A stretch of DNA of 32,000 bases from positions 321,400 through 353,399 of the forward strand of contig NZ_PQWO01000005.1 of the NCBI RefSeq assembly GCF_003231495.1. Reading direction: 5' to 3'. This DNA comes from Acaryochloris thomasi RCC1774. GTDB taxonomy: Bacteria; Cyanobacteriota; Cyanobacteriia; Thermosynechococcales; Thermosynechococcaceae. The position numbers and the translations under genes are program-made. A model generated the notes under the pieces. That model was not told where the DNA came from. It did not search any database and saw only the letters and a list, made by a program, of their open reading frames with translations. Position 1 is the first letter of the stretch; every line of letters begins with the position of its first letter. Shown here one piece after another: positions 1,292 to 31,916 of this stretch.

Positions 1292-2641
1292 TCAACTAAG
1301 TTGAAGGATTCGAGAGGTGACTGCCAGGCTCTCATTGTATAAAACATCCTGATCCCAGCGTTGGAGCTGCTGACTCAATAAGGTCTCTGCACTTTGATCC
1401 TGGAGCGGAGTTACATGCTGGATTCGGCAGGACTGAGCGCCGCCTCCAGCCTCCATACGCATACAACCCCGCGTTTCAGAACACAGTACTGTGCAGCAGT
1501 CTGCCTGCAAATTTGTTGAAGCTAGCTTCAGGTCAATCATGTCACCCGCAACATCACCGACATCACCGACCGGGACTGCCGCTAATTCAGCTTCAATCGA
1601 TCGCTGATCTTGACTCTTGAACTTAATTCGTTTGAGGTCGTAGTCACCCCCCTCAGATTCTACAGAAACAGGAGTCCACTGTAGGCGACTTGCCAACCAT
1701 CCCAAAAACATCATTGCCTGGGCAGGATTGCCCTTCTCGTAATCAAGGGTGACCCGATCGACTTCCATCAGAGCATCTCGTCGCTCCGGTGGGTCAAAGG
1801 CTTCTGCTGTTAGCTCTTGCCAAGCGGCCAGTCGTCGCCAGTTTAAGTCGGCAATATTGTGATCTGCTTCAACCAGGGATTGAATATTGACTAGCTCAGT
1901 CCCAGCATCATCAAACTCACTGGAGTCCATAATGATGGAGTTACAGGCTGAGCCGAGTCGACTGAATATTTCAGGATTGCTGTTGGGGGTATCTTTCCAC
2001 CAGAGGAACTTGGGTAGCCCACCGATCATCAGGGACTGGACTAGGCCAGCCACGCGGGCCAAGGCTTCCTCGGTGCCTGTGAGGGTAATGTACTCACAGC
2101 AAATTAAAGAACTGCGCTTTTGCTTTTTGATTGGGCAATAGGCTGAAACCTGCGCAGTGACGCCTTCATCCTCGCCAGAGATGGGGCAGAGCGTAATCAC
2201 GCGGCAGGGATTTTGGCTTGCGATCGCATCTGCCAGCCCTGACCCACTCGCATCAAGAACATAGTCCATCGACGGCTGATCGCCAGAAGTTCTTTTCTCA
2301 AGAATCGCCTGCTGCAGTCGCTCCTTGGTCTCTGGTGTTGCTTTCCCTGTCGTTTCTAAGCCATAGGCTTTCTGGGCTGAGCGCAGCGCCACTTCCATGC
2401 GAGGGCCACGAATACCGTCAATGGGGCCTTGATAGAAACCCAGAGCCGCCAGCAGCTGCTGCACTTCTTGAGGCGCATAAACCACCAAACTGAACGTGGC
2501 GGCTCGGGTTGCTGCCGGAGCACTGTTGTCATCGCCAGTGGCGTTATAACCCGTCCAAATTTTGCCCAGCTCTGCCGTAATTTCGTTGAGGGAGACATCC
2601 TTGGGGGACTGTAGTGAAACTAAGGGAGAAGATTTAGCCAT
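1292..2641 (-). CDS. opcA: OpcA, glucose-6-phosphate dehydrogenase assembly/allosteric activator protein
   Basis: 449-aa ORF starting 45 nt downstream of zwf on the same strand, in the conserved cyanobacterial order fbp-tal-zwf-opcA. Size and overall sequence character fit OpcA. It carries an internal peptidoglycan-binding-like segment (LLAALGFYQGPIDGIRGPRMEVALRSAQKAYGLETTGKATPETKERL). Confidence 0.85.
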   Translation of the reverse strand: MAKSSPLVSLQSPKDVSLNEITAELGKIWTGYNATGDDNSAPAATRAATFSLVVYAPQEVQQLLAALGFYQGPIDGIRGPRMEVALRSAQKAYGLETTGKATPETKERLQQAILEKRTSGDQPSMDYVLDASGSGLADAIASQNPCRVITLCPISGEDEGVTAQVSAYCPIKKQKRSSLICCEYITLTGTEEALARVAGLVQSLMIGGLPKFLWWKDTPNSNPEIFSRLGSACNSIIMDSSEFDDAGTELVNIQSLVEADHNIADLNWRRLAAWQELTAEAFDPPERRDALMEVDRVTLDYEKGNPAQAMMFLGWLASRLQWTPVSVESEGGDYDLKRIKFKSQDQRSIEAELAAVPVGDVGDVAGDMIDLKLASTNLQADCCTVLCSETRGCMRMEAGGGAQSCRIQHVTPLQDQSAETLLSQQLQRWDQDVLYNESLAVTSRILQLS

Positions 2642-12256: not shown

Positions 12257-13840
12257 ATGGTTGATCTGCTCTGGGTTCTACTCTGTACTGGCTTAGTCTT
12301 TCTGATGCAGGCGGGGTTTATGTGCGTCGAGTCGGGCCTGACGCGATCAAAAAATAGCATCAACGTTGTCGTCAAAAACATGGCCGACTTCGGGCTTTCG
12401 GTCGCTTTGTTTTGGATGTTTGGCTTCGCACTCATGTTTGGGGCCTCGCAGTGGGGCTGGATGGGCGGATCTCACTTTTTCCCTTCCACCGGGGTGAATG
12501 CCAAGTTTGTGGCCTTCTTCCTTTTTCAGGCCATGTTCTGCGGCACGGCCACGACGATCATTTCGGGAGCCGTGGCGGAACGTTTGAAGTTTTCGGCCTA
12601 CGTGATCATTGTAATTTTAGTGTCAGGACTGATCTATCCTCTCTTTGGCCACTGGGCTTGGAATAGTCTCCTGGAGGATAATTCTGGCGGTTGGCTAGGC
12701 AATCTCGGCTTTATTGACTTTGCCGGTTCTACCGTGGTGCATAGCGTGGGCGCTTGGGTCAGCCTAGCGACGCTTACTATTGTTGGGGCACGCCAAGGTC
12801 GCTTCTCCGCTGAGGGTAAACCTAATAAAATTCAGGGTTCAAATCTGCCGTTTTCGATGCTGGGTGCTTTGCTGCTGTGGTTTGGCTGGATTGGGTTTAA
12901 TGGCGGCAGTACGTTAGCGCTCAATGATCAGGTGCCCGGAATTATCCTCAACACCATCTTGGCGGGGGTTGCTGGGATGATTACAGCAGCCATCCTAAGC
13001 TGGATACAGCATCGTCTGCTGGAGGTGGAGCCGCTGATCAATGGAATGCTGGCGGGGTTGGTGGCGGTGACGGCTTGCTGCGATGTGGTTTCTACCCCCT
13101 TAGCCTTTGTTGTGGGCAGTACTGGGGCTTCTGTGGCTTTACTGGTCTCTTATGGGTTGATGCGATCGCAAATCGATGATGCCGTCGATGCCGTCGCCGT
13201 CCACGGCGGTGCGGGCGCTTGGGGAACTCTGTGCGTTGCTCTCTTTGGTCAGCTAGAAAACGTCAACCGAATCAGTCAGCTATCAATACAGCTACTGGGC
13301 GTGGGAGTCTGCTTTGCTTGGGCCTTCGGACTCCCGTGGTTGATCTTAAAAGCAGTCAATCATTTCTTCCCGCTACGGGTCACGGAAGAAGAAGAAGTCA
13401 TGGGATTAAACATCTCAGAACATCGGGCCAAAACCGATACCTATGATTTGTTTCAGGTGATGGATTATCAGGCCAAAACCTCTGATCTGAGCCTTCGAGT
13501 TCCCGTCGAACCGTTTACAGAGGTGGGGCATATCGCCACTCGCTATAACCAGGTGATGGATTCCTTGGCTCGTAACCATGACGATAATATCGATACGTTA
13601 GAGCAAATTTATACCCTGACAGCGGCGGCAGCAGCAGTGATTGAGAATAATCGGTTTGATCCTGAGGCTTTGGAACTCGATGGGATGTGCGATCGCAACG
13701 ACGAACTTGGAACCCTTGCCCGCGTTTTGCAGCAGCTTGTGGCAGCGGTCCACCAGCGAGAACAGGCGCTAGCTGAGCTTAATCCTGCTTTGACGGATGC
13801 ACAACTCCATACAGGCTCAAAAGATACCCCGCGTCCATAA
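12257..13840 (+). CDS. amt: Ammonium transporter (Amt family) with a ~125-aa C-terminal HAMP-like extension
   Basis: Amt signature N-terminus (LVFLMQAGFMCVESGLTRSKN). Twin-His regions (FAGSTVVHSVGAW and AVAVHGGAGAWG). The ATG directly abuts the K+ channel stop (TAGATG), with AGGAGG 10 nt upstream. The tail carries DLSLRVPVEPFTEVGHIATRYNQVMDSL and NDELGTLARVLQQLVAAV. Confidence 0.92.
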   Translation: MVDLLWVLLCTGLVFLMQAGFMCVESGLTRSKNSINVVVKNMADFGLSVALFWMFGFALMFGASQWGWMGGSHFFPSTGVNAKFVAFFLFQAMFCGTATTIISGAVAERLKFSAYVIIVILVSGLIYPLFGHWAWNSLLEDNSGGWLGNLGFIDFAGSTVVHSVGAWVSLATLTIVGARQGRFSAEGKPNKIQGSNLPFSMLGALLLWFGWIGFNGGSTLALNDQVPGIILNTILAGVAGMITAAILSWIQHRLLEVEPLINGMLAGLVAVTACCDVVSTPLAFVVGSTGASVALLVSYGLMRSQIDDAVDAVAVHGGAGAWGTLCVALFGQLENVNRISQLSIQLLGVGVCFAWAFGLPWLILKAVNHFFPLRVTEEEEVMGLNISEHRAKTDTYDLFQVMDYQAKTSDLSLRVPVEPFTEVGHIATRYNQVMDSLARNHDDNIDTLEQIYTLTAAAAAVIENNRFDPEALELDGMCDRNDELGTLARVLQQLVAAVHQREQALAELNPALTDAQLHTGSKDTPRP

Positions 13841-13969
13841 TTGAATGCGGATTAAGTAGAACCGAAATCTTTACTCAACATGCGTTTGAATGAGGTTGCG
13901 ATCGCAACTCCTGCACTTCGAACCTATCTTTATTCTGACCGAAGCCCCCACCGCGCCCAAAATTATACG

Positions 13970-14011
13970 GTTACAAATTTTACATTTCTGCAGATCACAA
14001 CCCTGTACGAT
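13970..14011 (+). promoter_or_regulatory. Candidate NtcA-type promoter of glnN: GTT-N8-TAC box (13970-13983) plus a -10-like TACGAT (14006-14011)
   Basis: Read directly: GTTACAAATTTTAC satisfies GT-N10-AC, one mismatch from GTA-N8-TAC. A TAN3T hexamer lies 22 nt downstream, which is the class II NtcA promoter geometry. The ATG is 45 nt further on. Confidence 0.35.
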
Positions 14012-14055
14012 TTACAGACCTCACACCTGATCTGAATCTGAAAGGAACCAATTTC

Positions 14056-16227
14056 ATGGGATACGAGCCTAGAACCCAAGCGATTTATCAAGTTACCCAC
14101 AGAGACCCTGTCCCGGTAAAGCCCCCAGAATCTCTACAAGATCTGTGGGCCACAGATGTATTCAGCTTGAGCAAGATGCAGGCTTGCCTTCCCAAAAGTG
14201 TCTTCAAGTCTCTGAAAGAAACAATTCTATCTGACGCCAAACTCGACCCTGCCGCCGCTGATGTTGTCGCATCGGCCATGAAAGACTGGGCGCTCTCGAA
14301 AGGCGCACTCTACTATGCCCATGTCTTCTACCCCATGACTAACGGCACAGCAGAAAAGCACGACGGCTTTATATCGGTGCAGAGTGACGGCACCGTCATC
14401 TCAGAATTCTCAGGCAAAACACTCATTAAAGGAGAGCCGGACGGATCTTCATTCCCTAACGGCGGGATCCGCTCCACCTTTGAGGCCAGAGGCTACACGG
14501 CTTGGGATGTCACCAGCCCCGCCTACGTCATGGAAACCGATAATGGCGTTACCCTCTGTATTCCCACCGTCTTCGTCTCTTGGACCGGCGAAGCCCTCGA
14601 TAAAAAAATTCCACTGCTGCGCTCCATCAGCGCTATGAATAAGTCTGCAACCAAGGTTTTGAAGCTGCTCGGTTGTAATGAGGTTAGCCGCGTTAACTCT
14701 AGCTGCGGAGCAGAACAGGAATACTTCTTAGTAGATACAGCCTTTGCCAACACTCGCTCTGATTTACTCTTGGCTGGCCGTACCCTGTTTGGGAAGCCAC
14801 CGGCAAAGGGTCAGCAGTTCGATGACCACTACTTCGGAGCGATCCCGGAGCGGGTGCAGGTGTTCATGCAGGAAGTTGAACGCAGCATGTATCGTCTGGG
14901 CATTCCGGCCAAGACCCGGCACAACGAAGTGGCACCTGGACAGTTTGAGATTGCGCCAATTTTTGAAGCTGCTGATGCTGCTGCCGACCATCAGCAGCTG
15001 ATTATGACCATCCTGCGGAATACCGCGAAGCGCCACGGTTTCGTCTGTCTCCTGCACGAAAAGCCCTTCGCGGGCATCAACGGTTCAGGAAAGCACGTTA
15101 ACTGGTCCGTCAGTAATGCAACCCAAGGCAACTTGCTTGATCCGGGCGATCAGCCCCACGAGAATCTTCAGTTTTTGACGTTCTGTGGTGCGATTATTCG
15201 CGGTGTCCATAAGTATGGCCCTTTGATGCGAGCCGTGATTGCGACTGCTAGCAACGATCACAGACTAGGTGCAAATGAAGCGCCACCGGCCATCATCTCT
15301 GTCTATTTAGGGTCTCAGCTCGAAGATGTCTATGAGCAGATTCAGAAGTGCGACGTGACCGGATGCAAACCCGGTGACCTCATGGATCTAGGGGTAGAGT
15401 CGGTCCCCACCTTCATGAAGGATTCTGGTGATAGAAACAGAACGTCGCCCTTTGCCTTCACCGGCAACCGTTTTGAATTCCGTGCAGTAGGCTCCAGTCA
15501 GTCTGTTTCGGGGCCACTGATTGCCATGAACACTATTTTGGCTGACTCTCTAGACTGGATCGCGAATAAACTTGAGAGCCAAGTCTCGTCAGGTGCTGAC
15601 CTTAAAGCGTCAGTGTATGGCATCCTCAAAGAAATTATGGATGAGCATGGTGGTGTTGTGTTCGGCGGCAATGGCTACTCCGAAGAATGGCACAAGATGG
15701 CTGTTGAAGAGCGAGGTCTTGCCAATCTCCCCACCACTGCTGATGCACTGCCTGTTCTTAAGGAGAAGTATATTGAAGAGCTGTTTGAAAAAACAGGTGT
15801 TCTCTCGCCCGTTGAGCTAGAGAGCCGCTTTGAGGTCTATTCCGAACAGTATGTGCTCTCAGTGGAGGTGGAAGCTAACTTGGTGGTCGATATCGCCAAA
15901 ACTCAAATCTATCCGGCAGCCGTCAAGTACATCTCAGACCTGTCGGCAACCGCCTCTAGTCTGAAGGAAATGGGGATTGAGTTTAACTATTCCATTGCCA
16001 AAAAAGTTGCAAGTCTAGTCAACGGATTGAGTGAATCAACCCAAAAGCTAGAGGATGCCCTGGATAAAGAGGAATTTTCCTCGATGGAAGAGCATATGCA
16101 GTACTTTGCTCAGACGATTCGTTCTTTGATGGATGAAGTTCGAGGCTATGCAGATTCCCTAGAAGGTGAAGTCGCAGACGAGCTGTGGCCGTTACCCAAG
16201 TATCAAGAGATGCTGTTCATTAAGTAA
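14056..16227 (+). CDS. glnN: Glutamine synthetase type III
   Basis: 723 aa, the characteristic GSIII size. GS catalytic-domain motifs ([27 protein letters not shown]). Confidence 0.95.
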
Positions 16228-16251
16228 CGCGTTCTATCTCAATCTGTTGAG

Positions 16252-16280
16252 GGGGTATCTGGAAGCAGGTGCCCCTTTTT
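16252..16280 (+). terminator. Intrinsic terminator after glnN
   Basis: An 8-bp stem (GGGGTATC / GGTGCCCC, including two G-U pairs) with an 8-nt loop, followed by TTTTT. It starts 25 nt after the stop codon. Confidence 0.6.
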
Positions 16281-16492
16281 GTCGGCGTGCGGTGCTTGCT
16301 GCTGTTTGGCAAAGTCTGGCCGTTATCTTCCTGGTTAGACATGTCTTCACTGTTGCACCTCGATAGGTGAACCTGAATTCTTGGTTAAGATTCGAGGCTT
16401 TTACGGGGTCAAATGTGCTGAGTGCGTAGCCCAAAACCTTATTCTGGTTTGAGAAGCAATGGGTCGTCTGTATCTTAAGGAGCAATTCATCC

Positions 16493-17914
16493 ATGGCTAA
16501 AACTGCCCAAGACATCCTGAACTGGATTAGCAACGACAATATTCAAGTTGTTGATCTGAAGTTCATCGATATGCCAGGTATCTGGCAGCACTTGACGCTG
16601 TATCAAGATCAGATTGATGCGGACAGCTTCACCAGCGGCGTCGCCTTTGATGGCTCCAGCATTCGCGGCTGGAAAGCGATTAACGAATCAGATATGGCCA
16701 TGGTGCCTGATCCCAACACGGCCTGGATCGACCCGTTCATGGAAGAGCCAACGCTGAGTATGATCTGCAGCATCCAAGAGCCGCGCACGGGAGAACCCTA
16801 TTCGCGTTGCCCGCGCTCTATTGCCCAGAAGGCTCTCGACTATCTTTCTGCCTCGGGTATTGGTGATACAGCCTTCTTCGGGCCAGAAGCAGAATTTTTC
16901 ATCTTTGAAGATGTTCGATTCGATCAGACTGAAAATTCTAGTTACTACTATGTAGACACCAAAGAGGGCCGCTGGAATAGTGGCAAGGTTGAAGAGGGTG
17001 GAAACCTTGGCTACAAGCCTCGCTATAAGGAAGGCTATTTCCCCGTAGCGCCCACCGATACCCTGCAGGATATTCGCACGGAAATGCTGCTGACGATGGC
17101 GAAGTGCGGGGTGCCGATTGAGAAGCATCACCATGAGGTCGCAACCGGCGGTCAGTGTGAGCTAGGTATCAAGTTCGCTCCGATCATTCAGGCGGCTGAT
17201 TTCTTGATGACCTATAAGTACTGCGTCAAGAATGTCGCCATGAAGCATGGTAAGTCTGCCACCTTTATGCCCAAGCCGCTCTTTAACGACAATGGCTCTG
17301 GGATGCACACTCACCAGTCCATCTGGCGAGATGGGAATCCGCTGTTTTGGGGTGATGGCTACGCTAACTTAAGCCAGATGGCACTGCACTATATCGGTGG
17401 CTTGCTCAAGCATGCTCCGGCTCTGTTGGCGCTCACAAACCCCACGACCAACTCCTACAAGCGTTTGGTGCCTGGTTTTGAGGCTCCGGTGAATCTTGCT
17501 TATTCGCAGGGCAACCGATCGGCTTCGATTCGAATTCCGCTCTCTGGTCCCAATCCTAAGGCTAAGCGGATGGAGTTCCGCTGCCCGGATGCCACCTGTA
17601 ACCCTTATCTTGCTTTTGCGGCAATGCTCTGTGCTGGGATTGATGGGATTAAGAATCAGATCGATCCCGGTAGTTCGCTGGATGTCGATATCTACGATCT
17701 CAGCCCTGAGGAGCTGGCAAAGATTCCGTCTACGCCAGGTTCTCTGTTAGATGCGCTAGAAGCTCTGCGGGACGATCATTCTTTCTTAACGGATTCTGGT
17801 GTGTTTACCGCAGATTTTATCGAAAATTGGATTGAGTACAAGCTAGATAATGAAGTGAATCCTATGCGTTTGCGGCCTCACCCCTATGAGGTGGCGCTTT
17901 ACTACGACTGTTAG
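16493..17914 (+). CDS. glnA: Glutamine synthetase type I
   Basis: 473 aa. Motifs [25 protein letters not shown] and [19 protein letters not shown] lies 11 nt upstream of the ATG. Confidence 0.97.
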
Positions 17915-22419: not shown

Positions 22420-22902
22420 ATGAAAATCATTCAAAAAACATCCGATACTTTAGTTTTACAGGAAAAACTGCTGGGAATCTGGATTTTGGGGTTAGGGACT
22501 GCGGCAACGGGTTTTTTTATCGTTATGTCTTTTGAGTCTCCTGTTGATTTGTTTGGCGGAGTTTGTATTGCGATCGCAGCTCTAGTGGCCACGCTCAGCC
22601 CCACTGAAACCTGTATCTTTGATAAAACAACTCGCCTGATTACACTGCGACGACAGCGATGGTTTAGTCACCGCATTCAGCAGCAAAATATCGCCCAGAT
22701 TGCTGACGTAATGGTGGAGCCGTATACGGTGATGGGAACTCAGTTTTTTCGAGTCAGTCTCGTGTTGTCCTCAGGCCAGACGATTGCATTGACCCGCTCA
22801 GCTAGCACTGACAGAGCTGCCCAGCAGCACCTTGCCCAGCATATCCAACACTTTTTAAGCCTCAAGCAAAATTCTCTCTCCGCTGCCGTTGCGACGCGGT
22901 AG
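22420..22902 (+). CDS. Hypothetical membrane protein (two predicted TM helices)
   Basis: ATG start preceded by TAGGAG. There are two hydrophobic segments, then a soluble tail. I recognise no motif. Confidence 0.55.
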   Translation: MKIIQKTSDTLVLQEKLLGIWILGLGTAATGFFIVMSFESPVDLFGGVCIAIAALVATLSPTETCIFDKTTRLITLRRQRWFSHRIQQQNIAQIADVMVEPYTVMGTQFFRVSLVLSSGQTIALTRSASTDRAAQQHLAQHIQHFLSLKQNSLSAAVATR

Positions 22903-24686: not shown

Positions 24687-25634
24687 ATGCAAGCTGTCAT
24701 CATTGCTGGTGGAAAAGGGACTCGACTGCAGCCGCTCACCTTTGGCTCCCCGAAACCGATGCTGCCTATTTTGGACCGCCCCTTCCTCAGCTGGATGGTG
24801 GAGCGCTGTCAGCAGGCGGGCATTACGGATATCCTGATGAATATTCGCTATCAGGCAGAGCAAATTCAGGACTATTTCGGAGATGGTGAAGCCTTTGGGG
24901 TCAAAATTCGCTATGTGATTGAGGAAACAGCCTTGGATACGGCGGGGGCGATGAAGCTGGCAGAGCCTCACTATACTGGGGATTCCCTGATTGTCTTTAA
25001 CGCGGATATTCTGACAGATTTAGATTTAGGGGCGTTGATTGAGGCCCATAAGCAAACGCAGGCCAAGGCAACGATCACGCTCACGCGGGTCGAAGATCCC
25101 ACGGCATTTGGTCTGGTGGAGCTATCTGAGGATGGCTCGGTGGTTGCGTTTCGAGAAAAGCCAACGGCGGAGGAAGCGGCCCAGCTCGGAATCGATACGG
25201 TGAATGCGGGCACCTATATTCTGGAGCCGGAAATTTTTTCCCAGTATCCTGATAACCAACCGTTGAGCTTTGAGCGAACGGTATTCCCTGATTTGCTGAC
25301 GCAGCAGCAGCGGGTGACGGGCTTTACCTGGGACGGCTATTGGATGGATTTAGGGACGCCTGCAAAGTACGTGCAGGGGCAAATTGATATGCTGACGGGC
25401 AAGATGCCCTATGCTTTGTCTGAGTTTGCCACCGAACAGTCCCCTAATGTCTGGGTGGCAAATTCAGCGACGGTGGATCCTGAGGTGAAGCTAACGGGGC
25501 CTTGTTTGATTTGCGATCGCACCCGCCTCGGCCCCAATACCGTTATCCCTGCGAATACTGTCGTGGGTGCATATTCTCTTATTGACCGCACGCTCTCGGC
25601 GGGATTCTATGCGCCAGGAACATTAGCGATATAG
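24687..25634 (+). CDS. NDP-sugar pyrophosphorylase (mannose-1-phosphate guanylyltransferase-like nucleotidyltransferase with C-terminal left-handed beta-helix)
   Basis: N-terminal AVIIAGGKGTRLQPLT (GGxGTRL) and PKPMLPI. C-terminal hexapeptide-repeat-like tail. Confidence 0.88.
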   Translation: MQAVIIAGGKGTRLQPLTFGSPKPMLPILDRPFLSWMVERCQQAGITDILMNIRYQAEQIQDYFGDGEAFGVKIRYVIEETALDTAGAMKLAEPHYTGDSLIVFNADILTDLDLGALIEAHKQTQAKATITLTRVEDPTAFGLVELSEDGSVVAFREKPTAEEAAQLGIDTVNAGTYILEPEIFSQYPDNQPLSFERTVFPDLLTQQQRVTGFTWDGYWMDLGTPAKYVQGQIDMLTGKMPYALSEFATEQSPNVWVANSATVDPEVKLTGPCLICDRTRLGPNTVIPANTVVGAYSLIDRTLSAGFYAPGTLAI

Positions 25635-25687: not shown

Positions 25688-26098
25688 TCACCACTTCAAT
25701 CTCAACTCCAATTGGATTCCTATTGAATAAAATTTAAATCCTGACTCTGGGGTGCCCGGGTCGCAACTTTCTGTGGAAAAGTGCTCTGCTTTTGAAAATT
25801 GGCTTGAATTGAGAAGATTCAGTAATTCTCCCCGCACTAACAACCCAAAGTAAAAATCACGCTTTCCCGGAGACATTCTAATACCAAGGAAAGCGGGTCT
25901 ATAGTGACAAGATGCTGGAATATGAACGCAATCTAAGGTTTTGGGGATGTGCTGACGTGAGATCAGGGATAATGGCCCTTTCTCCAAAATATTGAAAATT
26001 AAACTGAGCTGGCGGATATTGATTTCCGATTGTAAATGGTAAGCGATAAAGTATGGGATATTCTCTCGCCCAAAATCATCAACGCCATCATTAAACAA
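25688..26098 (-). CDS. Doubtful hypothetical ORF (136 aa, TTG start) in an AT-rich gap
   Basis: ORF track only. It has a non-ATG start, no obvious SD and no recognisable motif. It may be a gene remnant or noise. Confidence 0.2.
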   Translation of the reverse strand: MFNDGVDDFGRENIPYFIAYHLQSEINIRQLSLIFNILEKGPLSLISRQHIPKTLDCVHIPASCHYRPAFLGIRMSPGKRDFYFGLLVRGELLNLLNSSQFSKAEHFSTESCDPGTPESGFKFYSIGIQLELRLKW

Positions 26099-26234
26099 TC
26101 ATCCAAATAAAGTAGAATGACTATCTTTCTGATTTAAGTAGACTGATTTTCGTTCAGGATCAGGAGGTTCGCAACTGTTCCAATACTGATGGATAATGGA
26201 ACTCATAAAAAACTGACGTGTTCCTGCAGATGTC

Positions 26235-26264
26235 TGTTGAATTTTAAACAACTGAAATTCAACA
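26235..26264. repeat. Perfect 10-bp inverted repeat TGTTGAATTT-N10-AAATTCAACA
   Basis: Read directly. It lies about 170 nt downstream of the CheA-like stop on the minus strand. No U-tract follows. Confidence 0.7.
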
Positions 26265-26429
26265 CCGCCGAAGCTAGTAAAGATGATTTGGTTGAGCTTT
26301 AAAAACGTATTTCAACTAATAAAGTGACTCACCAATCTCAGTCAAAAAATTTTAAATAGGTCACAGGATTTAGTGCAAAAAAAATAGGAGACTGACTGAT
26401 AAGTTCCAAGCGATATAAGAAATTGGGGC

Positions 26430-28913
26430 CTAATGATGAATATCAAGCGTCTGTCGCATTAGATCTGCCACATCAACGACAAATGCAATGTGACTGTCGT
26501 CTAAAATCGTACACCCGCGCACCGATCTAGGAAGCTTAACTGCATCACTGAGGGGATTAATTCTCATCTCAGATTTTATGATGAGATGCTTGATCATTGA
26601 CGTAATGGCAAATCGCTTCAGACCTTGCTGAACAACTAAGGTTAAGGCTGTATCACTCTTATCCTGACTTAAAGTTTCGGGCAGCCTGCAGGTAGAATTG
26701 AGCAGCTCAGATAGGTTGTAGAAAGGAACCATCTGCCCTTGCCAAGGCAAGAATTGCTGCTGCTTGGATTGAAAGAGTTGATCGAGGCGAGGAATTACAC
26801 ATCCCAAGATGTTGTCGTAGGGTAAGGCAAAGACAACTGAATTGGATAGCCAGATAAAGAAGTTATTTGTCTTGAGCGTGTTTGGAAAATTTTTTTCTAC
26901 CTCGACAGCTGAGCGGTCAGGGCTGTTGAGAGGTGTAAACTTTGAAGTTAATGGAACGGCAGTATCCTCAAACTGCGTGGGTTGGTGTGAAGACGACGTA
27001 GTGTGATGACTAGACTCTATCTCGCATATTGCCTGTTGTTGATTGGGGAGAGTTATCACAAATGACGTGCCGTCATGAGATGTTGAATGAATGGTGAGTG
27101 AACCCTTCAGCTCACCTAGGCGTGCCTGTAAGTACTTAAACCCAACGCCTAAGCCAATACGAGCGTAGTTCCAGCGGTGTGAATAAGATTTCGCCTGCAA
27201 TAGCAGGTCTAAAAGTTGCTGTTTAGATAAACGGGCTGCTTGTTCAGTTGACTGCAAACGAAGCAGGACTGACTGTTCGCGAATCTGTTCAAAATTCAAG
27301 CCTTGTCCATCATGGCCAATGCTAATCATGATGCGGTCTTTTTGCTGATCAGCCTGAATCTGTATCTGACCTTTTTTGGCTTTACTGAGGCGGTGACGCG
27401 TGTCTGGATCTTCAATTCCCTGCAGCAGTGACATGTAAATCAAAGACAAAATAAGGTGATTGAGGCTTCCACTAATCTCTCTATTGATGCGTACTTGATG
27501 ATTCTGATAATGGACTTCTACTTCTTTGCCTGAGGCTTCTGCCCACTTTTCTATGAACAGAGGTAAGCGATTGAAAAGTGCATCTAAAGATAACGTACGA
27601 AGTTGAAACAGATGTTGCTGTATTTGCTCTAGATGGTGATGCTGCTTTTGCAGGGGCTGCTCAGCTTGTAAGTGGAGGTCCAAAAGTTGTTTTGAAAAGT
27701 ATTCAATGTATCTGAGTTCATTGGTCATGGACTGGCTCAAGCTTTGCGGGCTCGCGCTAGAGACTGGCTGAGATGCAATGACCGTTTCCTGCAAGTGCAG
27801 TAGCTTTTTTTGAAAACTTTGAGCATAATGCTGAATCTTGCGATTCGCTACAGTTTGTTGGGTGAGATTGATGAATACATCATTGACGAGCTGGCTAACT
27901 GCTGTCAGCCGTTGATCATCAACGTGAATCTCTGCGTTCAAGGCATTTTTCGGAGTTGATCGCAGACCGAGTTCTCCCTGATGCGCCACAAAACCAGGTA
28001 GCTGGGGAGTCCGAGCAGACGGGTACTTGCTAGCTGAAAGCTGTTTGAGTTTTTCTGACGGTTGACCACCATGCGTGCGATCACCAGACAAGATGAGTAT
28101 TTGTCCGCTGAGAAAATCTGCTAATGCTATCTGAGCGATGGTTGTAGCCTTCTCTGGATGAAGATCTAAGGCGGATACAGCTGTCTTCGCAATTTCTCCG
28201 AACCCCTCTAGATTTAGCTGTATCGATAGATCAATGAAGACGCTGCATTGTTCACGCAGGTAGGCTGCTACGGCTGCTGTATCCGCATGAGCCAACGTGA
28301 AGGCTAGATTCGCGAGTCGTTGACCAATCCATGTCTCGAAGATAGCTTGGGTTACATCGGTCCCCGGCAAGCAATAATCTGCAATTTCATCAATACTCTC
28401 TTCCAATCGGCTTATCTGACGACGGTCACCGAAACTTTCTAGCTTCAGATGAAGTTGAGCAAAAATAGTGATAATCCACTTGAGGATCTCAGGTTCATCT
28501 AGCTGAATTGGCGTTGTTTCTGCCTGTAGAGGCAACTTCAAACATTCATACCCTTGCAGCAGAAGTGACTCTAACTCTGAGTCAACGACAACTCGTGGGT
28601 TCAGTAATTTTTTAAAGTTTTCTTCAAGCAGATGGGCAACAACTGAAACTGTTGGAAATTCAAGACTCTCTGCTGTCCCGCCCACACCATAGGTGAGCTG
28701 TATCAGGTGATTGATTCGATCTGAATTGGGATCGTCTTTGAGATGGCTAAGATTACGCTCAATCTCATCCAGCCGCTCGGAGGCGTTGACAAGGAAGGTT
28801 TTGTAGACGAGGTCTCGCTTTTCAGAGTCGGTAATCATGATCCACTTGAGGAGTTTTGGAACTTCCTCACCAGGCTTGTATTGATTAAACAAGCTCCTTA
28901 TAGCATCCGCCAA
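26430..28913 (-). CDS. CheA-like protein: two Hpt-like domains, dimerisation domain, degenerate HATPase domain, CheW-like domain; no receiver domain
   Basis: By-eye alignment to CheA. P1-like INHLIQLTYGVGGTAESLEF versus the INxxFRAAHTLKGSAGMLGF pattern. P3-like IHVDDQRLTAVSQLVNDVFI. P4-like HLILSLIYMSLLQGIE .. HDGQGL .. RIGLGVGF. The C-terminal CheW-like domain spans aa ~685-820. The start is uncertain: TTG 28913, or ATG 28838 (MITDSEKRDL..). Confidence 0.85.
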   Translation of the reverse strand: MADAIRSLFNQYKPGEEVPKLLKWIMITDSEKRDLVYKTFLVNASERLDEIERNLSHLKDDPNSDRINHLIQLTYGVGGTAESLEFPTVSVVAHLLEENFKKLLNPRVVVDSELESLLLQGYECLKLPLQAETTPIQLDEPEILKWIITIFAQLHLKLESFGDRRQISRLEESIDEIADYCLPGTDVTQAIFETWIGQRLANLAFTLAHADTAAVAAYLREQCSVFIDLSIQLNLEGFGEIAKTAVSALDLHPEKATTIAQIALADFLSGQILILSGDRTHGGQPSEKLKQLSASKYPSARTPQLPGFVAHQGELGLRSTPKNALNAEIHVDDQRLTAVSQLVNDVFINLTQQTVANRKIQHYAQSFQKKLLHLQETVIASQPVSSASPQSLSQSMTNELRYIEYFSKQLLDLHLQAEQPLQKQHHHLEQIQQHLFQLRTLSLDALFNRLPLFIEKWAEASGKEVEVHYQNHQVRINREISGSLNHLILSLIYMSLLQGIEDPDTRHRLSKAKKGQIQIQADQQKDRIMISIGHDGQGLNFEQIREQSVLLRLQSTEQAARLSKQQLLDLLLQAKSYSHRWNYARIGLGVGFKYLQARLGELKGSLTIHSTSHDGTSFVITLPNQQQAICEIESSHHTTSSSHQPTQFEDTAVPLTSKFTPLNSPDRSAVEVEKNFPNTLKTNNFFIWLSNSVVFALPYDNILGCVIPRLDQLFQSKQQQFLPWQGQMVPFYNLSELLNSTCRLPETLSQDKSDTALTLVVQQGLKRFAITSMIKHLIIKSEMRINPLSDAVKLPRSVRGCTILDDSHIAFVVDVADLMRQTLDIHH

Positions 28914-29388
28914 GGTATTTTTCTACCTCAGGAGTCCTTTCAAGATGAACGAATGACTTTTCTTCTACAAAACACAGATTGCTATGTGATTAATGCACCA
29001 TCGCTGTATAGCCAACGGGGCCGTCGACAGCAAATTCCAATGCCCTTGAAGCGTCTCTACCTCAAAGCGACTATTGGAAAAGCTTTGCGCGATCTCACCC
29101 TGCGACTTTATGCCAAGTGCCTTGTGTAACTTCACACTCCTGCTGATTTATCAAATAGTCAAACAGACGCCAATTTCTGATCGTGAATTTATGTTAAGAA
29201 TTCTCTGTTTAGGACGATATATGAATCAATTATTATGTTGAACTTGCGGTATAGCTTTTAGCTAAGAATTTCATCCCGCTTGTTGAGACTTCTATAAAAG
29301 AGTAGAAGCACAACGGCGCTCGTGAGATTTTTCGAGGTATATCGTTGTCACTGATCGCGATCGTCTATTTTATTGTGGCTTAACTGCT

Positions 29389-30462
29389 ATGCAATCTTCG
29401 CCACCCCGTCGTCCCAGATTGGCTCAAGCATCGCTTGAAAAACTGAGTGCGCCTAGCTCCGTCGGCGGCAGTCTTATTTTAGTCTTTGTGTTGATTTGGG
29501 CGGCTGTGCTTATTGGTAGTGGGTTTAGTCGGTTTGTGCGGCCTGCAAAAGTTCAGCTCATGGGTGCCAAATCCTCATATCCTCACCGTTTTACGCAAGT
29601 ACCGTCGGTCCCAACGGGCTCGTTTAAATATGGTGGCAGTACGGCTTGGGCGCCGATTCGACTGGTCGTTGATTCATCAATTCAAGCAGAGCGATTAGAG
29701 TTCCAGCTTCGCTATGTCGAACCTAGAGATTATCCCTCTAGCTCAAGCCAGGGCATTCGGATGCTGCTGTCGGGACAGTTAAGCTTTGCGCAATCAGCAC
29801 GTCCTTTGATGAGTGCAGAGTATGAAGCCGCAAAGCGACAGGGTATTACATTGAAACAAATTCCTGTGGCAATTGATGGTGTTGCTCTCGCTGTTCATCC
29901 TCGCCTCAATCTGCCAGGATTAACCCTTAACCAACTGCAGTTAATCTATAGCGGTCAGGTGAAAAACTGGAAGCAAGTCGGGGGGCCTGACCTGGAAGTT
30001 CTTCCCTTTTGGCGCTTTCAGAATGCGACGCATTTGATGGATTTCCCGGTGGGGGGACTCTACAGCCGTCCGACCAAAATGATGAACTTTGAGGCCGTGC
30101 CGACAACGACTGAAGCACTGCGTCGTTTAGCTGGGTCTCCAGGCGGACTCTACTATGCTTCTGCATCGGTCTTGGTGCCGCAGTGTTCCGTCAAGCTTTT
30201 GCCCTTGGGGCGTCAGCCTGGACGGTTTGTCGCACCCTACGTTGGTCCTCAAGGCTCAGTTGGAGAATGCCCTAATCCTCGTCCTCGGATTAATCTAAGT
30301 GCCTTGCAGACGGGCCAATATCCGATCACACGCTATCTGTACGTCATTGTTAAGGAGAATGGACAGGTCGAACAGCAAGCCGGTGAAGCCTACGTTAATT
30401 TTTTACTCACACGGCAAGGGCAGGCATTACTTTCCCAGGCAGGGTTTGTCTCTCTTCGGTGA
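29389..30462 (+). CDS. Membrane-anchored PstS-family (PBP_like_2) periplasmic substrate-binding protein
   Basis: N-terminal TM (SLILVFVLIWAAVLIGSGF), then PBP motifs FKYGGSTAWAPI, VAIDGVALAVHP and LTLNQLQLIYSGQVKNWKQVGG. No pstCAB genes are adjacent. Confidence 0.8.
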   Translation: MQSSPPRRPRLAQASLEKLSAPSSVGGSLILVFVLIWAAVLIGSGFSRFVRPAKVQLMGAKSSYPHRFTQVPSVPTGSFKYGGSTAWAPIRLVVDSSIQAERLEFQLRYVEPRDYPSSSSQGIRMLLSGQLSFAQSARPLMSAEYEAAKRQGITLKQIPVAIDGVALAVHPRLNLPGLTLNQLQLIYSGQVKNWKQVGGPDLEVLPFWRFQNATHLMDFPVGGLYSRPTKMMNFEAVPTTTEALRRLAGSPGGLYYASASVLVPQCSVKLLPLGRQPGRFVAPYVGPQGSVGECPNPRPRINLSALQTGQYPITRYLYVIVKENGQVEQQAGEAYVNFLLTRQGQALLSQAGFVSLR

Positions 30463-30625
30463 ATACAGACTCTCATCTATTCTTCGAACCTTGGCAATTG
30501 TTTGTAGTCTAGAGGATATTTGAATCGCTTGTATAAATTAGCCTCTAGAATTAGCGCCCGCCTGACACAATGATTTTCTCTTATCTCAAGAGCGTTCAAA
30601 CTCTAAAAGTATTTAAGGTCTGGAA

Positions 30626-31621
30626 ATGACTCAAAGATTGCTTCAGTCAATACTTTTTCCCGTTCGGCAATTTGGGATGCATTTTAGGACTAAAGGCATT
30701 GTCCTCGCGATGACATTGAGTATGCTGCCTGTACTCATGGTGGGTACTGTCAGTTTCTATGTTGGAAACCGCGCCATTTTGGAGCAGGCAAACCAGGTGA
30801 AGCGGGTGGGGGTATTGGGGCCAGCTGAAGCTGAATTTTTGAGAGAAAGGCAACTCAGGCTACTGGGGCAAATGTTGATGGGAACTGGCCTAACAGCCTT
30901 GTCGGCAGGAGCTATTGCGGCTGGGATCACAGGTCACTTCCTTCAAGTTGTGAATCGCAACAGTCGCTCTGGAGAGATTAGTCATCCTACTGAATCTAAG
31001 GCAGAGCCGTTTGAGATTGAGCAAGATGCGAATTTTCAGGAGCTGCATCAAGACAGCCAGTCCACCATCAAAGGGACAGCGTCAGATCTAAATCAGTCTG
31101 TTGTTCTAACGGGGGGGCTCCGTCGTATTCTGGCAATTGCTGGCTCAGCGCGAGAATTAGCGGCCAATATTGAAAAAGCTCACATCCCAATGCAGCCTTC
31201 TCGTGAGCCGCTCACCGAACAGTTGTCTATTGATGATCCTGCAAGTGATCTCTCTGACATTCAAACAACCTTTGCAGAGGTGACACGCAATGCTCAACAT
31301 ATCGGTGACAGAACGCATCGAATTTCTGAAATCATAAGTTCTATCGATGATCTGGCGATACAAGTCAATCAAGTTTCTATCAATGCTCTGATTAAATCAG
31401 GCCGAGAAAAAGCGGTGGACCTGGAAGCTTCGCTGTTAACGACTGAGATGCTCCGATCTTTAACGAGTGATATCGTTCAAAAGACAACAGAAGTGACCCC
31501 CGTTGTCTCGAAGATAAAAGCCGATATTAGTGCTGTGGAGTCTGGAATTGAGCTTGGGACCGAAAAGATTGCGGCAAGAGTTGAATTGCCTCTAGAGACC
31601 TGGGGGAAGAGCAGACAATAG
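30626..31621 (+). CDS. Miniature methyl-accepting-chemotaxis-protein-like protein (2 TM, ~35-aa outer loop, short diverged signalling hairpin)
   Basis: Cyanobacterial-MCP-type N-terminus (RTKGIVLAMTLSMLPVLMVGTVSFYVGNRA). Second TM at aa ~82-106. Tip-like segment ISEIISSIDDLAIQVNQVSINALIKSGREKA versus the canonical IxxIxxIAxQTNLLALNAAIEAARAGE. Confidence 0.65.
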   Translation: MTQRLLQSILFPVRQFGMHFRTKGIVLAMTLSMLPVLMVGTVSFYVGNRAILEQANQVKRVGVLGPAEAEFLRERQLRLLGQMLMGTGLTALSAGAIAAGITGHFLQVVNRNSRSGEISHPTESKAEPFEIEQDANFQELHQDSQSTIKGTASDLNQSVVLTGGLRRILAIAGSARELAANIEKAHIPMQPSREPLTEQLSIDDPASDLSDIQTTFAEVTRNAQHIGDRTHRISEIISSIDDLAIQVNQVSINALIKSGREKAVDLEASLLTTEMLRSLTSDIVQKTTEVTPVVSKIKADISAVESGIELGTEKIAARVELPLETWGKSRQ

Positions 31622-31685: not shown

Positions 31686-31916
31686 ATGAGAATGGTCAGT
31701 GGCCATGGGGCAAAGGATCAGCTTTTGAGAACCAGCCTTGCTAACTCTGAGAGGCTGCGCTGTTCGGGTTGGGATGCGATCTCACCTAAAACCATCATTC
31801 CTGCCAATACTGTTGTGGATGCCCATTTGTTGATTAATCGCGAGCTGTCTCTAGGTTTTTGTATACCTGGAACATTCGCCGGTAGTCCTAAACGGGTAAG
31901 GATATTCTATCGATAA
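31686..31916 (+). pseudogene. Truncated, diverged second copy of the 3' end of the NDP-sugar pyrophosphorylase gene
   Basis: PKTIIPANTVVDAHLLINRELSLGFCIPGTFA aligns codon-for-codon with PNTVIPANTVVGAYSLIDRTLSAGFYAPGTLA at 25531-25631. Similarity is traceable from about 31735. The nucleotidyltransferase N-terminal domain is absent. Confidence 0.6.

Follow-up and report, generated by a model that had tools for sequence, protein, structure and literature searches.

A conserved three-gene unit of a PstS-like binding protein, a miniature chemoreceptor, and a predicted CheA-type pseudokinase in Acaryochloris thomasi RCC1774

To our knowledge, the chemotaxis-like systems of cyanobacteria are known almost only as light-sensing pathways. 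The hallmarks of the Tax and Pix systems are PatA-type and CheY-like regulators, CheW, and a hybrid CheA with a C-terminal receiver (REC) domain, and in the canonical Tax systems it is PatA-type regulators, once phosphorylated, that act on type IV pili (PMC11181946). Chemoreceptors can also be fed by binding proteins, as in the PstS–CtpL, BasB–BasT, and CosB–CosT pairs (PMC8050422). The stretch of Acaryochloris thomasi RCC1774 DNA described here (32,000 nucleotides; assembly GCF_003231495.1, contig NZ_PQWO01000005.1, positions 321,400 to 353,399 of the forward strand; hereafter the window) carries three neighboring genes that belong to the same protein superfamilies as Synechocystis Tax1/Pix (PixG, PixH, PixI, PixJ, and PixL) and other Tax, Pil, and Hmp systems. 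They encode a CheA-like protein, a PstS-like periplasmic binding protein (PBP), and a miniature methyl-accepting chemotaxis protein (mini-MCP). These three genes (the triad) travel together under purifying selection and are working genes. Compared with the Tax and Pix systems, the triad has no PatA- or CheY-type regulator, no stand-alone CheW, no sensor domain in its MCP, and no REC domain, and its kinase is predicted to be dead; it adds the PstS-like binding protein, a component that is not known from Tax systems, and its P5 domain falls in a clade separate from PixL. Sequence comparisons place it at the reduced end of a PstS-like-linked, Tax-type family in which REC is optional. The building blocks are all of known kinds, and what is new is the triad as the kinase-dead minimal form of this PBP-linked Tax family.

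The triad is arranged as follows, in window coordinates:
26430..28838, minus strand: CheA-like gene, 802 aa (entry P0001), placed by the open reading frame (ORF) list and the orthologue starts
28839..29388, no strand: divergent intergenic region between the CheA-like and PstS-like genes, 550 nt by coordinates, presumed to hold both promoters
29389..30462, plus strand: PstS-like gene, 357 aa, divergent from the CheA-like gene
30626..31621, plus strand: mini-MCP gene, 331 aa, with two transmembrane (TM) helices

The ORF list agrees with the positions, the 163-nt spacer between the PstS-like and mini-MCP genes, and the 331-aa two-TM protein that an earlier inspection of the bare letters (the sequence-only reading) had put forward. 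From its earliest possible start, an upstream TTG at 28913, the CheA-like ORF would span 26430..28913 on the minus strand; the real start is the ATG at 28838 (MITDSEK), which is used by P0001 and by both orthologues. Each of the three proteins has a database entry from A. thomasi RCC1774 at 100% identity. P0001 is publicly named ‘chemotaxis protein CheW’, and the mini-MCP is publicly annotated (P0027) as a 299-aa hypothetical protein starting from Met33, which would cut TM1; the 331-aa start is backed by the orthologues. Scans for consensus promoters and terminators at the triad stayed at chance level, with none above background. Neither Pfam searches of every plausible gene nor a phmmer screen of ORFs of at least 70 aa found a REC, stand-alone CheW, CheB, CheR, or PatA-type gene in the window, which reaches 26 kb upstream of the triad and only 379 nt past the mini-MCP gene. 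Over that span, the absence of CheY/REC, CheB, CheR, CheW, and PatA-type genes proposed in the sequence-only reading is confirmed. Its further statement that the locus holds array-type components and nothing else is right for the three genes and misses a pseudogenized fourth gene of the module at 25688..26305 (minus strand).

The same unit recurs on other contigs, in the same order and orientation. L001/L006, a contig of 32 kb from the metagenome-assembled genome of an uncultured cyanobacterium, encodes a CheA-like protein of 861 aa (minus strand), a PstS-like protein of 358 aa (plus strand), and a mini-MCP of 330 aa (plus strand); L005 holds the 5′ part of the CheA-like gene (minus strand), the PstS-like gene, and the 5′ part of the mini-MCP gene, and L004 holds the pair only, as the 3′ part of the PstS-like gene and the mini-MCP gene. 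Identities to the window proteins (CheA-like/PstS-like/mini-MCP) are 48/70/50% for L001 and 78/84/75% for L005, and the divergent intergenic DNA is 63% identical to that of L005. The L001 CheA-like orthologue (48% identity) was found via the contig of its neighbors, having been missed by a word-indexed protein search. On L001, the flanking genes (DUF4915, TPM phosphatase, and epimerase) have no counterpart in the window, no REC gene lies within about 9 kb past the fourth gene of the module, which comes after the CheA-like gene, or within 4.6 kb past the mini-MCP gene, and neither L001 nor the window contains a CheR or CheB gene. The co-occurrence and adjacency that the sequence-only reading had proposed to examine are therefore observed for all three genes on L001/L006 and L005, and for the PstS–MCP pair on L004. 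An assembly fragment of a larger cluster is rejected as an explanation, since the same three-gene unit recurs with other flanks. On the L001/L006 and L005 contigs, the true orthologues do not sit inside ordinary Tax clusters; L007, considered as an orthologue in an ordinary cluster, was rejected as a paralogue. L007 is an ordinary Pix cluster consisting of REC, CheW, GAF-MCP, Hpt, HATPase-CheW-REC, and CheW genes.

Selection on the triad was estimated by the Nei–Gojobori method as the ratio of nonsynonymous to synonymous divergence (dN/dS) in two close pairs with dS of 0.6–0.8. The values are 0.15, 0.11, and 0.19 for the window versus L005, and 0.05 and 0.14 for L001 versus L004. Across three or four lineages, all three ORFs are intact, with dS ranging from 0.6 to more than 1.7 and dN/dS from 0.05 to 0.21. 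As the gene order is kept and dN/dS in the close pairs lies at 0.05–0.19, the genes are not decaying, and these same values support the earlier suggestion of co-divergence rather than random decay.

Profile searches recovered Hpt, HATPase_c, CheW, PBP_like_2, and MCPsignal in the three proteins, the set that the sequence-only reading had proposed to look for, several of them under cutoff. In the CheA-like protein, Hpt scores 20.7 bits (cutoff 24.6), HATPase_c 26.1 bits (cutoff 26.4), and CheW 33 bits (cutoff 23.5), and the protein falls far under the cutoffs of the NCBIfam CheA models; in the mini-MCP, MCPsignal scores 28 bits (cutoff 34.6). The L001 orthologues exceed the Pfam cutoffs, with Hpt at 33, CheW at 42, and MCPsignal at 40.4 bits, so the weak scores of the window proteins reflect real homology. 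The AlphaFold2 (AF2) model of the CheA-like protein (predicted local distance difference test score, pLDDT, 71.8) gives the order P1, second bundle, P3-like hairpin, P4, and P5, and matches CheA structures in Foldseek searches. Its domains are the following:
28437..28838, minus strand: P1/Hpt-like helical bundle, residues 1-134 (AF2 bundle 5-134; alignment to E. coli CheA, 6s1k)
28089..28355, minus strand: second four-helix bundle, residues 162-250 (AF2 pLDDT 85-95; conservation)
27597..27917, minus strand: P3-like long helical hairpin, residues 308-414 (AF2 helices 308-355 and 364-414)
27039..27596, minus strand: P4 HATPase-like domain, residues 415-600 (alignments and Foldseek)
26436..26867, minus strand: P5 CheW-like domain, residues 658-801 (Pfam CheW, 33 bits; neighbor-joining tree)

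The catalytic residues were assigned by aligning the protein with the CheA sequences of E. coli and T. maritima and with intact relatives from cyanobacteria. In P1, Tyr50 (codon 28689-28691) stands at the position of the phosphorylated His48 of E. coli CheA in the 6s1k alignment, where at least 90% of aligned CheAs have His. The site is Tyr in the window and L005, His in L001, and part of an HTLK sequence in intact relatives, while the P1 helper motif AHLLEE is kept in all proteins compared and the P1 His of L001 lies in a good HxLRG context. The second bundle, which no Pfam model matches, is among the best-conserved segments and is common to PixL-type and PBP-linked CheAs; the N-terminal 260 residues as a whole are the best-conserved part of the protein in the orthologue alignment. 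The P3-like helices are modeled at pLDDT 72-80, and no H-kinase_dim match was obtained in the window protein by Pfam, which matched this model weakly in the relatives L095_1014 and L064. In P4, the N box reads SLIYMSLLQGIE, with Met in the window and His in L001 in place of its Asn; the G1 box reads HDGQG, the first Asp of DxGxG being replaced by His in both orthologues; and the F box reads AKSYSH, with loss of the F-box residues, whereas the G2 box (GLGVG, for GxGxG) is kept. HATPase_c reaches 26 bits in the window protein versus 58–64 bits in intact relatives, yet the P4 fold is kept, as Foldseek aligns it to the P4 domain of T. maritima CheA with a target TM-score of 0.92, a root-mean-square deviation of 1.6–1.9 Å, and 24–25% identity. 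P5 aligns to the P5 domains of E. coli and T. maritima CheA, and its strand-rich AF2 model (658–788) fits a CheW-like fold. The protein stops directly after P5, without a C-terminal REC domain and without a Pfam Response_reg match. The CheA-like protein is thus predicted to be a pseudokinase, in which the P1, P4, and P5 folds and a P3-like hairpin are kept and the phospho-His and the N-, G1-, and F-box residues are lost. Two points of the sequence-only reading, the missing REC domain and the degeneracy at family-defining positions, are upheld by these searches and alignments, the latter at the phospho-His and at the N, G1, and F boxes. The same P1, second bundle, P3-like, P4, and P5 plan is shared with PixL-type kinases, at 28–42% identity over parts.

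The state of P1 bears on a split-kinase phosphorelay, in which the CheA-like protein would be the half of a split CheA that lacks catalysis, and its P1 would be phosphorylated in trans by an intact CheA encoded elsewhere and would pass the phosphoryl group to an unlinked regulator. The His retained by L001 in its HxLRG context and the conservation of AHLLEE speak for such a relay, as does L095, a fuller PBP-linked cluster described below, which pairs a kinase-less Hpt-P5 protein having an intact His with a full CheA-REC; the division of labor itself is established for Rhodobacter sphaeroides CheA3 and CheA4 (PMC6829392). In the window and L005, however, the protein has Tyr at this site and purifying selection persists (dN/dS 0.15); whatever function is conserved in that lineage therefore cannot depend on the His. 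No kinase or regulator gene lies nearby in the window or in the L001 genome. We regard the relay as improbable. R. sphaeroides CheA3 is nevertheless an instructive parallel, because it does not autophosphorylate and still works as an array component with P1 and P5 (PMC6829392), as the CheA-like protein would. CheA3 differs in needing its P1 His and in having a phosphatase region; the CheA-like protein differs in its Tyr at the His site, its folded, dead P4, and the lack of a partner kinase nearby.

The mini-MCP is built from the following parts:
30692-30763, plus strand: TM1, residues 23-46
30764-30871, plus strand: periplasmic loop, residues 47-82 (36 residues)
30872-30940, plus strand: TM2, residues 83-105, Gly/Ala-rich and without a charged residue
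Residues 107-157, plus strand: linker of about 50 residues, unconserved
31259-31603, plus strand: MCP-type hairpin, residues 212-326

Pfam finds no HAMP, GAF, or other ligand-binding or sensor domain in the mini-MCP, and only the 36-residue loop lies between its TM helices; this loop is the best-conserved part of the protein within the triad clade. The hairpin profile matches the tip of Tsr (1qu7) with an E-value of 1e-5. In the profile alignment, the canonical tip motif (EAARAGEQGRGFAVVA.EVR.LA) is replaced by KSGREKAVDLEASLLTTEMLRSL, in agreement with the strongly diverged MCP tip noted from the bare sequence, and the tip of the long relatives is likewise non-canonical (INATIGAGRAGD..ESVI..AEAVRSL). 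The protein itself is rare: only two other clusters at 90% identity occur in a collection of 5.8 billion proteins, and just two full-length mini-MCP clusters emerged when 1.84 billion representative proteins were searched exhaustively with HMMER. The same search returned 76 proteins at E ≤ 1e-10, and most among the matches listed are about 650–1300 aa long. These long relatives align to the mini-MCP in two separate stretches, its N-terminal module and its C-terminal hairpin, and GAF domains lie between the two in the two long relatives that were read. The mini-MCP is therefore best described, as far as its sequence can tell, as a two-TM module joined to a short MCP hairpin, from which the central GAF sensors of its relatives are gone.

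Two further observations concern this protein and its relatives. P0154, a protein of 344 aa, has the same two-TM module followed by a short tip like that of the long relatives (NATIGAGRAGD...), and may be a second, independent miniaturization of a 2TM-GAF-MCP. At the C-terminus of the mini-MCP (31580-31621), a VELPxxTW sequence a few residues from the end is kept in all orthologues; it differs from the NWETF-type pentapeptide and may be a docking motif.

The PstS-like protein matches PBP_like_2 at 83 bits and, at about 50% identity, falls into a large subfamily from cyanobacteria, with 2334 matches. Its N-terminus has 25 basic-rich residues followed by a single hydrophobic helix at about residues 27–49 (nt 29467-29535), as seen in the hydropathy profile and in the AF2 model (helix 26–49), and contains no lipobox, which points to an anchor and not to a cleaved signal. 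For the protein as a whole, the AF2 model is poor (pLDDT 60). One feature of the pocket stands out:
30010..30033, plus strand: altered anion-binding loop, W208-R-F-Q-N-A-T-H215 (alignments, including to Sll0540, 9l8j)

This loop reads R-x-x-x-S-G-T in PstS proteins and SRPxxxGGT in the wider subfamily; in the triad it is WRFQNATH (A-T-H) in the window, A-T-H in L005, and WRSRNATS (A-T-S) in L001, while the other PstS pocket motifs, GST and SARPL, are kept. The roles of the pocket and anion-loop residues are presumed to be those of E. coli PstS. A small oxyanion is the probable ligand, and it need not be phosphate, as the anion loop is altered.

The database name of the protein is PstS, and this name, the PBP_like_2 fold, and the retained GST and SARPL motifs would all suit an ordinary phosphate-uptake PstS whose adjacency to signaling genes is coincidental. 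This is very unlikely on several counts. No pstC, pstA, pstB, or other ABC-transporter gene occurs in the window or in the L001, L013, L064, and L095 neighborhoods, and the scores against the curated PstS models are far below cutoff (TIGR02136, 102.7 versus 206.6, or half the cutoff; TIGR00975, 37.7 versus 205). The protein has a membrane anchor instead of a cleaved signal or lipobox, its S-G-T loop is replaced, its clade is defined by MCP adjacency, and that adjacency is kept on every orthologous contig. A phosphate-uptake role is accordingly rejected on context, anchor, scores, and clade.

Binding proteins that serve receptors offer closer comparisons. In Halobacterium salinarum, the genes of the tethered binding proteins BasB and CosB lie directly upstream of those of the transducers that depend on them, BasT and CosT, and outside transporter operons (PMC8050422); in the triad, similarly, the PstS-like gene is followed by the mini-MCP gene after the 163-nt spacer. 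Unlike the triad, BasT and CosT feed a normal CheA/CheY motility pathway, and their binding proteins belong to other families (BasB is Peripla_BP_6). The P. aeruginosa PstS–CtpL pair provides a PBP_like_2/PstS-family protein that acts, ligand-loaded, as co-receptor of a chemoreceptor (PMC8050422), which is the role proposed here for the PstS-like protein. In contrast to the latter, P. aeruginosa PstS is a true transporter component whose gene lies with the pst genes rather than with that of the receptor. A large HBM sensor domain is present in CtpL; the mini-MCP offers just its 36-residue loop, and the anion loop of the triad PBP is altered.

A metagenome scan with a profile of the PstS-like subfamily gave 79 loci, the neighborhoods of which were annotated by phmmer with domain queries from loci in hand. 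Among 87 non-redundant loci, a Ser/Thr kinase gene neighbors the PBP gene in 34 and a GAF/MCP gene in 25, and a neighbor-joining tree of the PBPs splits the MCP-linked from the Ser/Thr-kinase-linked context, with the triad PBPs forming a long branch beside L013, L018, and L064. The two-TM module is present in the PBP-adjacent MCP of 14 MCP-linked loci besides the triad ones; at the remaining MCP-linked loci, the adjacent MCP gene ends at the contig edge and the module is unscored. The loci group as follows:
Window, L001, L004, and L005: triad loci with a PBP and a two-TM-module MCP
L010, L013, L017, L018, L024, L025, L049, L064, L076, L082, L088, and L095: loci with the module, among the 14
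L009, L020, L029, L031, L040, L057, and about 28 others: Ser/Thr-kinase-linked loci

In an alignment of 20 modules, MLPVLxVG...FGxxAIxEQ (TM1 and the start of the loop) and GTGxTALxxG (TM2) are conserved, and the module is not found in PixJ of the ordinary Pix cluster L007, the sole control. At the Ser/Thr-kinase-linked loci, which come mostly from Nostoc-type genomes, the kinase gene (~465 aa) is nearly always followed by one or two PBP genes, and this clade looks like a second, kinase-coupled use of the tethered binding protein.

Several of the MCP-linked loci are fuller clusters whose layout, with a PatA-like regulator first, GAF-MCPs, and a CheA-REC, matches that of Tax systems (PMC11181946). 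L013 encodes a PatA-like regulator, a PBP, a 2TM-GAF-MCP, and a CheA-REC. L095 (Leptolyngbyaceae cyanobacterium MO_188.B28) has the same components with an Hpt-P5 protein inserted between the MCP and the CheA-REC: L095_464 (L095 8936-10330), a protein of 464 aa consisting of Hpt, bundle, and P5, with no kinase domain and with the canonical His. L064 encodes a PBP, a 2TM-GAF-MCP, and an intact CheA of 818 aa without REC, and no regulator gene is found in the 4.4 kb upstream. In L010 (Hydrococcus), the PBP gene lies between two GAF-MCP genes, and the 466-aa protein L010_466 (L010 741-2141) is of Hpt-like-P5 type, without a kinase domain and with Glu at the His position. The Hpt-P5 proteins, of about 465 aa, occupy the place that CheW has in ordinary Tax clusters, and L095_464 and L010_466 share the two-domain logic of CheA3. 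In a neighbor-joining tree of P5 domains, the window protein, L001, L064, L013, L095_1014, L095_464, and L010_466 form a clade with 200/200 bootstrap support, and the PixL-type kinases fall outside it.

Three elements are constant across the family, as predicted from these loci: the PBP, the MCP with two TM helices, and a protein of the CheA family in which P1, second bundle, and P5 are present. The kinase core appears to have been lost or disabled along at least two structurally distinct routes, namely, by point mutation of P4 in the triad and by deletion of P3-P4 in the Hpt-P5 proteins. The divergence of the receptor tip noted from the bare sequence is real, but a diverged tip and P5 are common to the whole wider family and not confined to this locus. 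No description of the triad or of the wider PBP-linked family was found in about 8 million open-access papers and preprints, as the sequence-only reading had supposed for a system of this composition, but the triad is not isolated, being a reduced member of a larger family.

The P5 clade also bears on the possibility that the triad is an array modulator in trans, in which the mini-MCP and pseudokinase would not signal by themselves but would insert into a canonical Tax array encoded elsewhere, the binding protein tuning the kinase of that array either by supplying an additional input or by braking it in a dominant-negative manner. The parts retained, P5 and the MCP hairpin, are those that build arrays, the dead P4 could be kept as a folded spacer, and several Tax systems per organism are common in cyanobacteria (PMC11181946). 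As the triad P5 and tip form a clade apart from the PixL type, however, a private partnership is the better argument, and a purely structural array role leaves the strong conservation of the N-terminal domains unexplained. We consider a modulator of this kind unlikely.

The module contains a fourth gene, which is intact in L001 and degraded in the window:
25688..26305, minus strand: fourth-gene pseudogene (tblastn, 55% identity over residues 2-175)
31785..31890, plus strand: degraded repeat, about 70% identical to the 3′ end of the NTP-transferase gene (DNA alignment and protein similarity)

The intact copy (L001 4321-5421, minus strand) lies downstream of the CheA-like gene and encodes 366 aa, with no Pfam match in its N-terminal domain or its MCP-tip-like end; the C-terminus is weakly MCP-tip-like by blastp (E=2e-8) and phmmer (32 bits). 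In the window copy, ACG stands where the Met codon would be, TGA interrupts the frame at a Trp codon (~26099-26101), and about 190 C-terminal codons are missing; this missing half adjoins the left copy of a direct repeat. This repeat is formed by the 3′ end (25520-25634, ~35 codons) of the NTP-transferase gene (24687..25634) and its degraded copy, which together bracket a module of about 6.2 kb and suggest an insertion into, or a rearrangement at, the NTP-transferase gene; no integrase is present at the module in the window. The GC content at third codon positions (GC3) is 0.445–0.472 in the module versus 0.56–0.63 in the surrounding window genes, and on L006 it matches the flanks, a pattern compatible with horizontal acquisition from a lower-GC relative, or else with weak codon selection.

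It could be argued from this that the triad is a functionless remnant of a Tax cluster being lost: catalytic residues, GAF sensors, and REC are gone, the neighboring gene of the module is already a pseudogene, the GC3 is atypical, and the organism is non-motile. The intact ORFs and low dN/dS across three or four lineages contradict this, as does a gene order that is kept while the surroundings in L001 differ. The pseudogene serves as an internal control, demonstrating what real decay looks like at this locus and that it has not touched the triad genes. Decay is thus highly improbable, and in its simple form it is rejected on dN/dS and synteny.

It is on balance probable that the binding protein, mini-receptor, and scaffold form a complex whose output is independent of phosphotransfer of its own. 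In such a complex, the tethered periplasmic PstS-like protein would act as co-receptor of the mini-MCP, itself without a sensor domain, the two touching at the conserved TM helices and at the 36-residue loop. The pseudokinase would act as a scaffold, bound through its P5 domain by the mini-MCP hairpin. Because the CheA-like protein is predicted to be unable to autophosphorylate, the output would be contact-based, passing by protein–protein contact via the conserved P1-like domain and second bundle to a partner encoded elsewhere.

Several points weigh against this complex. Everything beyond the statement that the genes belong together is derived from neighborhood and conservation, and, whereas the interactions of the Bas and Cos proteins have been demonstrated, their counterpart in the triad is deduced from the genes. 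The trees are neighbor-joining trees on short alignments, and that of the PBPs is midpoint-rooted and without bootstrap. L001 keeps the P1 His, so that phosphotransfer in trans would be possible in that lineage, and no regulator gene lies in the window or on the L001 contig. The altered pocket, together with the poor AF2 model, makes ligand binding by the PstS-like protein uncertain. Finally, the published description of A. thomasi as non-motile (PMC6002478) means that type IV pili, through which Tax systems usually act, may not apply.

The remaining window encodes ordinary metabolism, including opcA-zwf-tal-fbp, an ammonium transporter, two glutamine synthetases, a Ser/Thr kinase, LytR, and a sugar nucleotidyltransferase. 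A nitrogen-assimilation cluster at 12257-17914 has the ammonium transporter gene followed by type III glutamine synthetase and type I glnA genes side by side, and this transporter carries a C-terminal extension of about 130 residues with a faint HAMP match. The OpcA protein (glucose-6-phosphate dehydrogenase assembly protein; 1292-2641, minus strand) has an N-terminal PG_binding_1 domain (53 bits). A 160-aa protein at 22420-22902 (plus strand) matches Pfam Cybc1_Eros at 29.3 bits, slightly over the 27-bit cutoff; the family comprises cytochrome b-245 chaperones of eukaryotes and is unexpected in a cyanobacterium.

For the annotation of these genes, the analysis puts right the database names ‘CheW’, ‘PstS’, and the truncated ‘hypothetical protein’. 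For the family, the tie between a PBP clade and two-TM-module MCPs suggests that some Tax systems receive a chemical input, possibly an oxyanion, via a private co-receptor, and P1, second bundle, and P5 are kept under selection in both routes of kinase loss. The triad would be a natural minimal system for asking what role is played by an array unable to phosphorylate. A bolder proposal, which is advanced tentatively and with more doubt than confidence, is that the triad is a working, phosphorylation-independent, array-type complex that signals the presence of an extracellular small molecule by contact between proteins in a non-motile cyanobacterium, and that it is the minimal form of an unrecognized class of Tax systems whose chemical input comes via a private PstS-like co-receptor. 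If true, it would represent a chemically gated branch of the otherwise light-driven taxis machinery of cyanobacteria.

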